Below are positions 4,584-36,701 of a stretch of DNA of 64,000 nt, piece by piece. The first letter of the stretch is position 1. Each line of letters starts with the position of its first letter. Position numbers and translations under genes: made by a program. The notes under the pieces were generated by a model. The model was given only the letters and a program-made list of their open reading frames with translations, ran no database searches and was not told the origin of the DNA. Source of the DNA: a virus; the IMG/VR virus record IMGVR_UViG_3300017978_000305, positions 10,231-74,230 of that record. One strand, given 5' to 3'.

Positions 4584-7500
4584 ATGTTTGAAAGTGCAGA
4601 CTTAAAGAATCACCTAGAAACATCTTCTACAGTTAGAACCCAATCAGCAGTCATAGCTGAATGGAATATGAATATTGCAGAAAACATTTCTCTTGTTGGA
4701 AACTATCGCTACAGACCTACTGAGGGTCCTTCTGCTAAGTATGGCTTGCCAATTGGGTCTTTTGATCTTAATGACTCTGGAAACTTTTATACTAACGCAA
4801 CAGATGCAGATGTTGTAATTGACGGTGGTCTAGAGAATGATAACCAAACCCCTATAGCCTTTGTCAGCAAGAAAGAAAAAGAAAAGCTGCTCTACTCCCT
4901 TGAAGACTGCTTTGGAAAGTTTAGACCAAGATCAGGAATCAATAAGCTGAGATATTTTCCTGGTGCATACAGTCACTTTACTAACATAAACATGATTCGC
5001 AGGCCAAGGTATTACATGGCACATAAAGATGACTCGTTTAAGTATTGGTCCTCATACAGGACAGAGTACGGTGTTGAGAGGGGTATTGCGAATAAGCTTG
5101 TTAACGGACAATACTTTATTGATGATGCGTCTCCATTTGTAGTATACAAAGACATAGTCCCATCTAACCGCATTGTTGTTAAGATGCAGACAAACGTTGG
5201 TGAAGTAGACCTTGGTCCTTTTAGTACAACTGCTGGATCATTTCAGGATCCATTCTTTGGCAACCTAAATAAAACAACTCCAGTGAGATGGAAGGTCCAG
5301 GTTCTTAAAAGCAACAACTGGGTAGATGCTGTATCTTTTAATTCTGGATCTGCTAGAAGAGATGGCACTCCAATTATTGGATCAGATGGGTATGTAGAGC
5401 TATCGTATGGACTAGTTGTTCCAGAAAAGTATCGTGACATATTCGTAAAGGCAGAAGAGTATTTTACAGAAAGCTTTTTACCAGAAAGATCCATTAACGG
5501 ATATGCCTACCTGATCCGACAGAGCGACTCTGATGTTGGTGTATTCCATATCTGGATTGACTCTGCTGATACATACGAAACCTTTATTCCAGAATATGGC
5601 TGGTATCTAGAAGAGTCATCTGTAGATAGGCTAACCAATTTTGTTAATGATCTAACTTCACCATTGACTTATACAGATCCAACATCTAGTCAAACAAAGT
5701 ATAGAGAGTTTGATGAAGTATCTGGCCTTAGGGTTGTTGTAGATACTATGAATCGTGTAGATGCAATCTTTGACTTAATTGAGCTATCTCCAAGACTTGC
5801 TGTAAACCTTTCCGAGAAAACAGAATCTTTGAGCCTTACCAAGGCTGCCTCTGATCTTGGTAACAGCGGAATGCCAGTAGGTCAGCTCTTGGCAGGAGTT
5901 GGCTCGCTATCATTGTTTGACTATGACTTGGCTTTTAGCTCTCTTAATCAAAATAGCATAGTTTCAAAGTATCTTTCAAAAAATATTCAGTTTAAATTTT
6001 ATGAGGTAATTGTAGATGTAGATGGGTACGACTACTACATTCCACTAAAGACGATGTATTCAGAGGGTATTCCAGAGCTAAGCAGTAGCGATAGGTCAGT
6101 AGAGCTGACTCTAAGAGACATGTTCTTTTACTTTGAGTCGAAGTCAGCACCACAAATCTTGATACAGAATGCTTCAGTAAGCTATGCCGTTTCTCTATTG
6201 CTAGACTCTATTGGGTTTTCAAATTATGTCTTTAAGAGATTGTCAACGGAATCAGAGTCAGTCATTCCATACTTCTTTGTTTCTCCAGACAAAACAATAG
6301 CAGAAGTTCTAAATGATATTGCTGTTTCTACCCAGACCGCAATGTTCTTTGATGAGTATAACAATCTAGTTCTTATGAGTAAAGAGTATATGCTGCCACC
6401 AGAAACTTCTGAGAGGCCAACAGACATAACTCTTTACGGATCTAATGATTTTGAAACAGACGGTGCAATCAATAACAAGACTACAAATCAAAAGCTAGCT
6501 AATATTGTAGAGCTTAGCTCTCAGCAGGATCAGGTGTTTAATGATGGTCGTGTGTCGTATACCACCAGATATATTCAGAGGTCATATGGCTCACTCCGCC
6601 AAGCGTCAATGATTGACAAGGACAAGACCTGGATATACAAGCCAGTCCTTTTGTGGGAGGTTGCAGGAACAGAAAACACTAAGTCTGTCAATGATGTTGT
6701 TGGCAACCAATCTAACTTTGTTTTAGGTGCTATTCCACTAGAGTCTGAAATTACAAACGTTGTTCCATTTGTTCAAAATGGCATTATACAAAACAATGTC
6801 ATGAACTTTGGCGAGGGTATTTATTGGATAACTAGGTACAATGGATACTTTTATGCAAATGGAGAGATCATTAGGTTTGATGCTGTAGAGTATGAAATAC
6901 CAGGCGTTGATCGAAATGTTCTACAAAGAAGTGAAAACGGGCAGATTACTTCGTCTACTGTTTCTGGAAACTCTATTGGAAGAGTATGGATTACTAGCGT
7001 AAGAGAATACCAAAAGTATTTTTCAAAGCTTCCTTTTAATGGAAAGATGTATCCAACTGGTAGGGTAAGAATTTATTCTGAGCCAAACTATGTAACTGTT
7101 AATGGAATTGAAAAACTTGCAGATGGCCCAGTGGCAAAACATGGACGTGGACAATTTGGAACCCCAGTTGTCTCACATCCTGCAGGACTTTCTAGCTATT
7201 GGACACAGAACTCTTCTGTCCGTGGATGCTCCATGAAGTCGTCTCAGCTATTTGGTGCTGAAGAGGATACTGCAATTCAGTTGGGGGCAGCAGGCCAGAT
7301 TAACTCTGTAGCCATTAACTCCACAAGAACTGGAGTGATCAAAAACTTTTTAACTTACTCACCATCATCAGAGATGGTAACGCAAAATTCAATTGCTCCA
7401 GGAACAATACAGTCTTCTGCTTTTGTTTTCACTGGTCCATCTTTTACAACTACTCAAACCCCAATTGACTTTGTCTCTTATGTCTACAAGCCACTAGACA

Positions 7501-34626: not shown

Positions 34627-35436
34627 ATGGGTATGAAAAAAGTAATCGGACTATCTGCGGTAGCACTTGCAGTAGCCTCAATGTTTTCCGTAGCACCAGC
34701 TCAGGCAGATGCTAAGTCACTAGTTGTAATTGATAGCTACTTTGACTCTCGTATTGGAGATACGCCCATTGTATGTGTAACAGGTAACTCTTGCATTATT
34801 GATACAAGAACCAAGAGCACCTCTCTTACTCATCCAGTAAATCATGGCGTGGCTATGGTTGATGCTGTAAAGTCTAAGTTTCCACAGGTAAACGTAATCG
34901 CTCTAAGAGCAGCCGATGCAAAGACAGAGATGAATGTTGGACATCTAGTTTCAGCACTAGAGTGGGCATTGCAGAATAAGGGATCTATCTCAGCACTGTC
35001 TTTATCTCGTAAGATGAATGGACCAGCTCATAACCGTACTGGCTGTGATGCTGCAACTGTAAACACTGCACACCTAGGTGGTAAGGCAGGAGCAGATGCA
35101 AAGGTTCGTTCGCTAATTGCAGAGCTAAGATCAAGCGGTATTCCAGTGTTTGTATCTACTGGTAACGGTCGTGGCAATGTAGTAGATTATCCAGCATGTA
35201 TTGAAGACACTAACTCAGTTTCTACTGGCTCTGAGAACAAGCTTGGCCTACCAGCAAGCGTAGACAAGTTCAATGCAGGCACTGACTACTTTGTATCTAT
35301 TGCAAACAACAAGTTTAGCATTACAGGAATCTTGTTTCCTTCACTGCCTAACACTACATCACTTGCAACTGTCCTAGCAGCTGCAAAATATACTGCAGAA
35401 TCTAACTTGACAAAGTTTATTTCTGTGCTACCATAG
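34627..35436 (+). CDS. Secreted subtilisin-like (S8) protease
   Basis: Signal peptide (AQA); Asp 'VVIDS', His 'NHGV', oxyanion 'STGN', Ser 'NTTSLAT'. Confidence 0.65.
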   Translation: MGMKKVIGLSAVALAVASMFSVAPAQADAKSLVVIDSYFDSRIGDTPIVCVTGNSCIIDTRTKSTSLTHPVNHGVAMVDAVKSKFPQVNVIALRAADAKTEMNVGHLVSALEWALQNKGSISALSLSRKMNGPAHNRTGCDAATVNTAHLGGKAGADAKVRSLIAELRSSGIPVFVSTGNGRGNVVDYPACIEDTNSVSTGSENKLGLPASVDKFNAGTDYFVSIANNKFSITGILFPSLPNTTSLATVLAAAKYTAESNLTKFISVLP

Positions 35437-35448
35437 ATTATAATTAAA

Positions 35449-35515
35449 TAGAGTGACGGAGATCAGGTCCCTGTAACACGAAAGTGTCGATCAAACCCCT
35501 CTCAGGTGAATTCTA
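35449..35515 (+). ncRNA. Glycine-riboswitch-like structured leader (candidate)
   Basis: Closing stem TAGAGT/ATTCTA; internal GGAGA, TAACACGAAAG and CTCTCAGGT signatures; TATAAT at 35439-35444. Confidence 0.3.
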
Positions 35516-35562
35516 GAGTAGTAGCCTGACACCCTGTCCCCAGTGCGTCTTGGGGGACATCT

Positions 35563-35634
35563 TCCTCACTAGCTCAACGGCAGAGCAACGAGCTGTTAAC
35601 TCGTGGGTTCCTAGTTCGAATCTAGGGTGGGGAG
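35563..35634 (+). tRNA. tRNA-Asn(GTT)
   Basis: Acceptor TCCTCAC/GTGGGGA, anticodon arm ACGAG-CTGTTAA-CTCGT, T loop TTCGAAT. Confidence 0.92.
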
Positions 35635-35804
35635 CGATAGAGATTACTACTCTATTACGCTATCGCTACCGTGCGGTGAAATCGGTAGAGGTGTCCAGGC
35701 ATCGGAATCTGGAACAGGCAGAGGTATGTATCTGCTGGGAGTTAGTCCACTTCCGTAGAAAAGGCTCAGAGGCAGAATGGCTCGTAATCATGGCTGTCTC
35801 ACTT

Positions 35805-35872
35805 GGATAGATGGTGTAATTGGCAACACGGCGTTGATCAGCCAGTTGGGAGTTCGAATCTCTCTCTATCCA
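35805..35872 (+). ncRNA. tRNA-like RNA with a shortened anticodon arm
   Basis: Perfect acceptor GGATAGA/TCTATCC+A, D arm GTGT-AATTGGCA-ACAC, T arm GGGAG-TTCGAAT-CTCTC; only 18 nt between the D and T arms. Confidence 0.75.
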
Positions 35873-36014
35873 CAAACAGTAAGTCCCTTCGTAACGGACC
35901 TGGAGTTATATAACACTCAAGGTCGCAGCCCTACGGACTTGCTGGGAGATAGTCTGCGAGCTCAAGGGCTATCTCTAATAGACTTACAACTGCGGTTCGT
36001 AATTGTTCAGCACC

Positions 36015-36043
36015 TTGCAAGAGATTAAGTTGTAAGCTATAAT
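36015..36043 (+). promoter_or_regulatory. Sigma-A/70-type promoter inside the RNA island
   Basis: TTGCAA-17 nt-TATAAT. Confidence 0.7.
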
Positions 36044-36141
36044 AGAGTGCACCACACTTGGTTAATTAAACCTGAGTACAGGCAATAGGTTATCCAGGGT
36101 GCATCCGTCAAGGTTAGTCCACCAGTGTATGCAAACGGCTA

Positions 36142-36209
36142 GGGGTTGTATGGTAACTGGAAGCACTCCAGGTGAAGCCATGTCAAACGGTGCAAATCCG
36201 ACAACCCCA
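36142..36209 (+). ncRNA. Second tRNA-like RNA (degenerate D and anticodon arms)
   Basis: GGGGTTGT/ACAACCCC+A closing stem, T-loop-like CGG-TGCAAAT-CCG, D-loop-like ATGGTAACTGGAAGCAC. Confidence 0.5.
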
Positions 36210-36289
36210 CGATTCTTGCTAGAGACGGGTATGTATGTGCCCACTCATGTGCCTCTACTGCCAGTCACAAAGTCTGGCCGAGAATCATT

Positions 36290-36363
36290 GGCTTCGTAGC
36301 TCAGTAGGTTAGAGCACCACCCTGTCACGGTGGGGGTCGTGGGTTCAAGTCCCATCGGAGTCG
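36290..36363 (+). tRNA. tRNA-Asp(GTC)
   Basis: Acceptor GGCTTCG/CGGAGTC, anticodon arm CCACC-CTGTCAC-GGTGG. Confidence 0.93.
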
Positions 36364-36520
36364 CTCTTTGCAAAGCGGTCCTGAACAACCGTTGTAAAGA
36401 TCGTGTAATTGAAGACTACGGTGTTCCAGCGGTAAGGTTGAGGAGTTCAGCCAACACATCATGCGTCTATGCGAGAACTTAGATTACACAGCCATCAGCT
36501 CTTGCGTGGATGGCAACCAA

Positions 36521-36593
36521 GGTCCGTTGGAGTAGTGGTTATCTCGTCTGCCTTTCACGCAGAAGATCACGGGTTCGAAACCCGTACGGACTG
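36521..36593 (+). tRNA. tRNA-Glu(TTC)
   Basis: Acceptor GGTCCGT/ACGGACT, anticodon arm TCTGC-CTTTCAC-GCAGA. Confidence 0.93.
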
Positions 36594-36608
36594 CTATAAT
36601 ATATACAT

Positions 36609-36682
36609 GCTTCCTTAGCTCAGTTGGCCAGAGCAATCGCCTTGTAAGCGATAGGTCGTCAGTTCGAACCTGACAGGAAGCT
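36609..36682 (+). tRNA. tRNA-Thr(TGT)
   Basis: Acceptor GCTTCCT/AGGAAGC, anticodon arm ATCGC-CTTGTAA-GCGAT; TATAAT at 36595-36600. Confidence 0.93.
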
Positions 36683-36701
36683 CGAAAAGAAAGAGAATAC
36701 C

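Follow-up and report, generated by a model that had tools for sequence, protein, structure and literature searches.

A family of tRNA-shaped RNA genes with a shortened anticodon arm in the tRNA islands of a group of freshwater phages

The usual explanations for tRNA genes in phages are codon supply and escape from the anticodon nucleases of the host. Structures of tRNA type are also found embedded in other transcripts, where they commonly serve as cutting signals for RNase P and RNase Z; MALAT1-mascRNA, the tRNA-miRNA genes of murine gammaherpesvirus 68 (MHV68) and the t-elements of plant mitochondria are examples, and mitochondrial tRNA punctuation is another. Elements of the mascRNA type are cut by both enzymes, are given CCA and do not decode. 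The vtRNA/TMER genes of MHV68 and the t-elements are tRNA-shaped and non-aminoacylated, and their processing sets the ends of the adjacent RNAs; the tRNA-like part of the MHV68 genes additionally carries their pol III promoter. Species 1 and 2 of the T4 tRNA cluster (rnaC/rnaD) are small non-tRNA RNAs that are co-transcribed and co-processed with the phage tRNAs, and neither, as far as we know, is a cloverleaf whose anticodon arm has been cut short. The literature searched contained no description of a phage cloverleaf whose stub arm is conserved.

The tRNA-like element described here (TL) was compared with each of these systems. With the tRNA-like elements of mascRNA/MALAT1 and MEN-beta (RF01684) it shares intact acceptor and T arms, a reduced anticodon arm and an adjoining non-coding RNA. 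The mascRNA system, however, is eukaryotic and nuclear, its sequence is unrelated to TL, and its element lies 3′ of a long RNA, whereas TL lies 5′ of the neighbouring RNA; in Rfam, no mascRNA match was obtained on TL, and the sole weak match fell on tRNA-Asp. The MHV68 vtRNA/TMER genes and the t-elements belong to other hosts and depend on other enzymes, and to our knowledge neither keeps a conserved 3-bp stub. Canonical accessory tRNAs of phages resemble TL in their island location, trailer, acceptor/D/T architecture, comparable rate of change and patchy presence, but carry an arm of 5 bp and 7 nt where TL has a 3-bp, 8-nt stub that offers no usable anticodon. Finally, the tRNA-like domain of tmRNA and the YrlA Y-RNA-like RNAs (RF02553) also combine a tRNA-like acceptor/T-arm shape with the lack of an anticodon arm. 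In the tmRNA domain, G3-U70 is present, a D stem is lacking and a long body is inserted, in contrast to the A3-U70 pair and full D arm of TL, and ARAGORN called no tmRNA in the DNA analysed; YrlA RNA ends where the anticodon arm would be and pairs with Ro60, and no RF02553 match was found on TL in Rfam. TL is not a tmRNA domain, not a YrlA RNA and not part of the manA RNA treated below. It is filed as a tRNA-like RNA and not as a tRNA, as it passes the Rfam tRNA threshold and fails the defining feature of the anticodon arm, a 5-bp stem with a 7-nt loop holding U33, the anticodon and a purine at position 37.

The DNA analysed (the window, 64,000 nt) belongs to a virus contig of IMG/VR that is 78.8 kb long and has an estimated completeness of 69%. 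Coordinates of TL, its neighbours and the manA RNAs of related contigs (L-numbers) are collected in Table 1; R1 denotes the covariance model of the TL family.

Table 1. Features of the island in the window and manA RNAs of the relatives.
Feature	Sequence	Coordinates	Strand	Description or support
Promoter-like site upstream of island	Window	35407..35434	+	TTGACA-16 nt-TACCAT with TG; consensus match only
tRNA-Asn(GUU), first gene of island	Window	35563..35635	+	ARAGORN and Rfam
TL, tRNA-like RNA gene, 68 nt, position 1 to discriminator A	Window	35805..35872	+	Rfam RF00005 44.3 bits; R1 96.7 bits; cloverleaf = MFE fold
TL acceptor stem, 5′ strand	Window	35805..35811	+	Partner 35865-35871; 7 Watson-Crick pairs
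TL D arm	Window	35814..35829	+	4-bp stem and 8-nt loop with A14, G18, G19, A21
TL stub in place of anticodon arm	Window	35830..35843	+	3-bp stem GGC/GCC; 8-nt loop GUUGAUCA
TL variable region	Window	35844..35847	+	AGUU; one extra A in some variants
TL T arm	Window	35848..35864	+	5-bp stem, loop UUCGAAU; canonical U54 U55 C56, A58
TL 3′ trailer	Window	35873..35879	+	CAAACAG; C74 encoded, CCA not encoded
Module b, structured RNA directly downstream of TL	Window	35877..35980	+	Two hairpins; kept in L013, L033
tRNA-Asp, conserved spacer RNA, tRNA-Glu, tRNA-Thr	Window	36290..36683	+	ARAGORN/Rfam; 91-94% identity in L011, L013
manA RNA	L011	9029-9211		RF01745, 61-69 bits
manA RNA	L016	3421-3602		RF01745, 61-69 bits
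manA RNA	L017	3730-3911		RF01745, 61-69 bits
manA RNA	L023	4160-4340		RF01745, 61-69 bits
manA RNA	L030	5074-5255		RF01745, 61-69 bits
manA RNA	L031	5585-5766		RF01745, 61-69 bits
manA RNA	L033	2800-2980		RF01745, 61-69 bits

An earlier note, made from the letters of the window, had described TL as a tRNA-like gene with a 7-bp acceptor stem, a 4-bp D stem and a canonical T arm around an amputated anticodon region, and all of these parts are present in the sequence. The D stem is formed by GUGU/ACAC around the 8-nt loop AAUUGGCA, and the T stem by GGGAG/CUCUC, with one G-U pair among the five; U8 is kept. Between the D and T stems only 18 nt are found (GGC-GUUGAUCA-GCC-AGUU) versus 22-23 in a normal tRNA, again as had been noted. 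The discriminator A (35872) is followed by C, and the claim that the same holds for all true tRNAs of the window is borne out for seven out of seven. Full CCA is encoded neither by TL nor by these seven.

The note had also suggested that tRNA gene finders be consulted, and here the outcome was divided: the Rfam tRNA model recognized TL at 44.3 bits (gathering threshold 29; E 3.8e-6 for the whole window), whereas ARAGORN, run on the window, made no call at this position. Neighbouring tRNAs scored 60-69 bits in the same model, and the deficit of about 20 bits lies entirely in the anticodon arm, where the alignment holds 10 nt instead of 15 inside the outer stem pair. The minimum free energy fold (RNAfold) is exactly this cloverleaf, at −21.9 kcal/mol and 61% of the ensemble (z −2.4; 3 of 200 shuffles equally stable). 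An alternative pairing of CAAC in the D loop with GUUG in the variable region received no support from the variants. For the loop motif TGATCA no meaning as a restriction or Dam site was found, GATC and TGATCA both occurring at expected frequencies.

Relatives were found by degenerate pattern scans (L011; L030-L033) and through homologues of the 269-aa protein encoded upstream. Since the variants differ at positions 7, 9 and 12, strict patterns missed TL, returning one unrelated tRNA-Gln and otherwise no match, and degenerate patterns were needed. A scan of genome contigs for the TL core gave no match, a search of named phage genomes for the island gave generic tRNA matches only and no relative, and exact look-ups of the proteins of two flanking genes gave one short contig for one and none for the other. 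In total, nine distinct variants were found in at least 14 contigs from IMG/VR, JGI, ENA, NCBI and Logan assemblies; copies besides that of the window are carried by L011, L013/L014, L015, L017/L018/L019, L023, L024, L030, L031, L032 and L033. Identity within the family is 85-97%. The element is missing from the relatives L003-5, L008, L016, L025 and L027-29, and a search of the whole 78.8-kb record showed it to be present there in single copy. R1, built from five variants, gave 91-100 bits for family members (96.7 for TL of the window) and 46.7 bits for the best true tRNA, the tRNA-Ala of L017. With the Rfam tRNA model the homologues scored 42-47 bits, L013/L014 not being listed at the gathering threshold. 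TL is a member of a small family in a tRNA/non-coding-RNA island of a group of freshwater phages. One carrier, L023 (NCBI GCA_009923575.1, RFTE01000001.1), is a 69-kb contig of this phage group within a Burkholderiaceae bacterium bin, which is either a hint to the host or a binning artefact.

All nine variants have the short arm, (G/U)GC-NN-UGAUCA-GC(C/A), with a 3-bp stem, an 8-nt loop and C at the equivalent of position 37, and the core GC..UGAUCA..GC is unchanged throughout. Logan contigs over TL came from three other studies (freshwater 2019, freshwater 2024, wastewater 2025); they showed substitutions at positions 7, 9, 12, 17 and 23 and one extra A in the variable region, one of them had a loop of 7 nt, 1 nt shorter, and a restored longer arm was seen in none of the contigs from these studies. 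The one sequencing run certain to be RNA, a metatranscriptome, had no contig on TL, and another run labelled as RNA is probably DNA; neither is informative on expression. The conservation of the arm in relatives, which the earlier note had wished to see checked, was therefore confirmed: a normal 17-nt arm occurs in none of the variants found. Because the short arm recurs in independent assemblies, misassembly and recent deletion are both dismissed as its cause.

Such an arm bears directly on decoding. The stub falls short of an anticodon arm by 2 bp and 5 nt and cannot reach from the decoding centre to the peptidyl-transferase centre. To work as a decoder, for instance as a tRNA-Ile(GAU) or a four-base decoder, TL would have to read codons through a stem of 3 bp and a loop of 8 nt (or 7 nt). 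Pointers in this direction are the U-GAU-C-A of the loop, the 7-nt loop of the Logan variant and the result of ARAGORN on the 69-nt variants of L032 and L033, which were reported as 'tRNA-???' with anticodon (ga). Against them, the arm lies 2 bp below that of every known cytoplasmic decoder, with both its length and its helical phase altered, and it is exactly in this arm that TL loses Rfam score relative to its neighbours. Together with the short stub, the C at position 37 and the variation in loop length and in the first two loop letters make decoding by TL very unlikely, and the decoder reading as a whole is given hardly any chance.

The nine sequences were aligned and the fold was examined. 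Standard pairs occupy 99.4% of the stem cells, and RNAalifold returned the same four helices. In three pairs, located in the acceptor stem, the D stem and the stub respectively, both nucleotides are exchanged and pairing is preserved: pair 4:69 goes from U-A to C-G in L015/L024, three variants have G-C and six have U-A at pair 12:23, and the closing pair of the stub is G-C in five, U-A in three and G.A, an intermediate, in one. Two further pairs switch between Watson-Crick and G-U, namely acceptor pair 7:66 (A-U to G-U) and the T-stem G-U pair of the window, which is G-C in every other variant. The covariation score of the alignment was reached by none of 500 shuffles, and the paired fraction fell to about 50% when the 3′ partners were shifted by 1-3 columns. 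Insertions and deletions are confined to loops, and the elbow nucleotides, including G18 G19 of the D loop, are invariant.

These data were set against the possibility that TL is a hitch-hiking tRNA pseudogene, a functionless accessory tRNA from whose anticodon arm 5 nt were deleted, its apparent conservation resulting from close kinship of the carrier phages and block recombination of the island. In its D arm, variable loop and T arm, the body of TL does resemble tRNA-Gln genes of phages (Vibrio phage VS1, the contig L002, Streptomyces phage Alone3), and against the tRNA-Gln(UUG) of Vibrio phage VS1 its arm aligns as a 5-nt deletion; the shallowness of the family and the absence from several relatives point the same way. 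The substitutions speak otherwise. Between the window and L015, all eight stem substitutions keep pairing, whereas in simulations all 19 pairs stayed intact in 0.23% of cases with 12 random substitutions, the distance between these two sequences (p about 0.002), and in 2.7% with seven. No helix is disrupted in any variant beyond the one G.A. Between the window and L017, identity is about 90% for TL and about 94% for its flanks; being as diverged as the flanks, TL had time to accumulate substitutions, yet only those that keep the fold are seen. A functionless remnant is thereby judged quite improbable, and a decaying tRNA pseudogene is clearly argued against by the preservation of the fold. The claim of the earlier note that the loss of the arm reflects selection for a non-decoding role and not decay finds support here, in the short arm of all nine variants and in the compensatory changes of the stems and of the closing pair of the stub. 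As covariation events are few and the family is shallow, the three covarying pairs probably representing few independent events, the evidence for selection is good and not overwhelming. Judged from the comparison of sequences, TL is a genuine gene, encoding a tRNA-shaped RNA that does not decode and whose fold is kept by selection.

Two ideas on the origin of TL were rejected. That TL replaces tRNA-Gly(UCC), as suggested by L003-L005, is contradicted by L032 and L033, which carry both. That it is a recent copy of the phage's own tRNA-Gln does not agree with the tRNA-Gln(UUG) of L016 and L017, which is unlike TL, nor with G1-C72/A73, which is not Gln-like; by R1, the nearest true tRNA is the above tRNA-Ala of L017, at only 46.7 bits. 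In L002, an unrelated 185-kb viral contig, the Rfam tRNA model matched 6756-6834 and 6838-6954 (−), neither of which is called by ARAGORN; one of these matches is 117 nt long and possibly represents an intron-containing or otherwise unusual tRNA.

In the window, TL is located in a gene-free stretch of 1.27 kb (35437-36701) between an uncharacterised 269-aa open reading frame (ORF) and a TP_methylase-type ORF. Here ARAGORN found tRNA-Asn, tRNA-Asp, tRNA-Glu and tRNA-Thr, and the Rfam tRNA model found the same four and TL. Inside the island, a consensus scan detected no terminator-like site. The leader of the island (35437-35549) is kept in L008 (80%) and L015 (86%) despite different tRNAs behind it, and no riboswitch was found in it in Rfam, even at E up to 5. 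Directly behind TL, the stretch 35873-36020 folds with −48 kcal/mol (z −3.6; none of 200 shuffles as stable), its paired region being contained in module b. Among the window, L013 and L033, where TL is followed by the CAAACAG linker and then by module b, this module shows a compensatory change from A-U to G-C. Searching 35860-36300 against Rfam at E up to 10 returned no family, module b included.

The island is a mosaic of modules, composed of true tRNAs, TL and several other structured RNAs. TL follows tRNA-Asn in the window, L011, L013, L017, L024 and L033, follows tRNA-Gly in L032 and lies between tRNA-Asp and tRNA-Glu in L015, and so behaves as a movable gene within it. The CAAACAG linker is also found after TL in L011, L017, L031 and L033 and after tRNA-Asn in L016, and the trailer of the tRNA-Met of the window, CAAACUG, is similar. 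Other parts of the island have their own structure. The spacer between tRNA-Asp and tRNA-Glu (36392-36516) is conserved relative to L011 and L013 about as well as the tRNAs and forms a long branched hairpin closed by GUGUAAUU/AGAUUACAC; it is probably another small RNA gene. At 36142-36209, and at about 2190-2222 in L032 and 2770-2800 in L033, a T-arm-like hairpin (loop UGCAAAU) is accompanied by an acceptor-like strand ending in CCA, and the modules of L032 and L033 share the CAAACAG linker. Modules of this type may be another tRNA-end mimic; the 68-nt stretch 36142-36209 was considered as a second member of the TL family and dismissed, matching neither R1 nor the Rfam tRNA model.

In several relatives the RNA behind TL is manA RNA. 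TL ends 6-7 nt before it in L011, L017/L018, L023, L030 and L031, and this manA in turn ends 0-44 nt before tRNA-Asp; as the manA matches begin only 6-7 nt downstream, TL is not part of the manA model. In the window, Rfam gave no manA match. In L016, which has no TL, manA comes after tRNA-Asn through the very same linker, CAAACACAGAG.

By analogy with the embedded tRNA-like structures described above, we lean, tentatively and with somewhat less than even confidence, to the reading of TL as a tRNA-type processing signal, matured like a tRNA and marking cutting sites for the neighbouring RNAs. The promoter-like site at the head of the island would drive transcription of TL along with that of the tRNAs around it, and TL would fold into an L-shape in which U8, A14, G18 G19, U54 U55 C56 and A58 are kept. 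RNase P would cleave at the 5′ end of TL and the host tRNA 3′-end enzymes behind its discriminator or C74, after which the CCA end would be completed. The 3′ cleavage would release the 5′ end of the next structured RNA, manA in several relatives and module b in the window, and cleavage by RNase P at the next tRNA would release the 3′ end of the structured RNA between them. The released and stable TL may also act as a mimic with a second role elsewhere in the cell.

Several features are consistent with the processing role. TL keeps the acceptor/T helix, the elbow of D loop and T loop, the discriminator and C74; since the features read by RNase P, the 3′-end tRNA nucleases and the CCA-adding enzyme are kept, maturation like that of a tRNA is suggested, and the C74 with a CAAAC... 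trailer as in true tRNAs points to tRNA-like processing as well. The sandwich of TL, manA and tRNA-Asp fits use as a cutting signal. A processing signal had been among the roles proposed in the earlier note, and of those roles it alone is backed by context, namely by the position of TL 6-7 nt before manA or another structured RNA and by the true-tRNA trailer. Two observations count against this role. A true tRNA could do the same job, as in L016, which leaves the retention of a non-decoding copy unexplained, and TL moves between contexts and is not always beside manA, which is consistent with an autonomous gene that has a function of its own. Bacterial RNase P and RNase Z are, moreover, able to cut minihelices; given this, selection on the D stem and the stub may reflect a partner that reads the whole shape.

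These same points, the true tRNA of L016, the mobility of TL and the reach of selection into D stem and stub, make a tRNA mimic acting elsewhere in the cell a strong second reading, possible although on balance doubtful. A CCA-tailed TL would titrate or divert a protein that binds the tRNA body, any function as a cutting signal being a side effect; a host tRNA-targeting defence enzyme or toxin, a synthetase, a modification enzyme and EF-Tu are, with the same reservation, candidate partners. As expected of an independent and movable gene, TL occurs in at least four neighbourhoods with a patchy distribution like that of accessory tRNA genes, and the whole cloverleaf is under selection. No change is seen in the loop core UGAUCA or in the G-C pairs on either side of it, but six invariant loop letters are unremarkable at this low divergence, 52 of the 68 columns being unchanged among the first five variants. 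No partner gene was evident either: Pfam matches of the window ORFs were limited to replication, nucleotide metabolism, modification and lysis, neither the window nor the record yielded a gene for a tRNA-related protein, and the 78.8-kb record, 69% complete by estimate, gave no match to TROVE/Ro60 or to a CCA-adding enzyme.

The last seven loop nucleotides, N-U-GAU-C-A, are like an anticodon loop with U33 and GAU. The bacterial tRNA-Ile identity set comprises A73, C4-G69, U12-A23, G34 A35 U36, A37, A38 and C29-G41 (PMC9976931). In TL, A73 is present in all variants, U12-A23 in six of the nine and C4-G69 in two of the nine, and GAU and an A38-like nucleotide lie in the loop; A37 is absent, its place being taken by C, and the 29-41 pair is absent, the stem being too short. 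TL might accordingly imitate tRNA-Ile, as a stable CCA-tailed sponge or decoy for a host tRNA-directed defence enzyme or synthetase that spares translation, which we consider improbable. Position 37 is not the purine expected of an anticodon-loop mimic, and anticodon nucleases generally need a normal anticodon stem-loop. The resemblance to isoleucine tRNA is a lead only.

A slim chance remains for an aminoacylated carrier, which would be charged by an anticodon-independent synthetase and donate its amino acid to a transferase in a non-ribosomal reaction. LeuRS, AlaRS and SerRS ignore the anticodon, and the Fem transferases of cell-wall synthesis use dedicated non-proteinogenic tRNA isoacceptors. 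The acceptor stem, A73 and the T arm of TL are intact, and with C74 encoded, completion of CCA is plausible. TL nevertheless has no G3-U70 (alanine), no long variable arm (serine, bacterial leucine) and no G-1 (histidine); the long variable arm is listed as a bacterial leucine mark (PMC9976931). With the marks for alanine, serine and histidine absent, anticodon-independent charging is not obviously available to TL, and the Pfam matches included no gene for a Fem-type transferase, an L/F-transferase or a cyclodipeptide synthase.

A phage lineage that keeps the tRNA shape and drops the decoding part points to a use outside translation, for which RNA processing and tRNA mimicry towards host factors are the candidates. 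Should the decoy reading with its imitation of tRNA-Ile be true, TL would be one example of a wider, undescribed class of non-decoding tRNA-shaped phage RNAs in host takeover. As the family now has a covariance model and nine variants, direct experiments are possible.

The arrangement also bears on the cataloguing of manA RNA as a candidate cis-regulatory riboswitch of marine cyanophages. In the present contigs manA lies between a tRNA or TL and tRNA-Asp, and a protein gene behind it is absent. Its place between tRNA-type cutting signals, with no protein gene attached, suggests a free-standing processed RNA, and manA may be such an RNA in these freshwater phages. A manA-like stretch was also observed in Rhodococcus phage Francesca.
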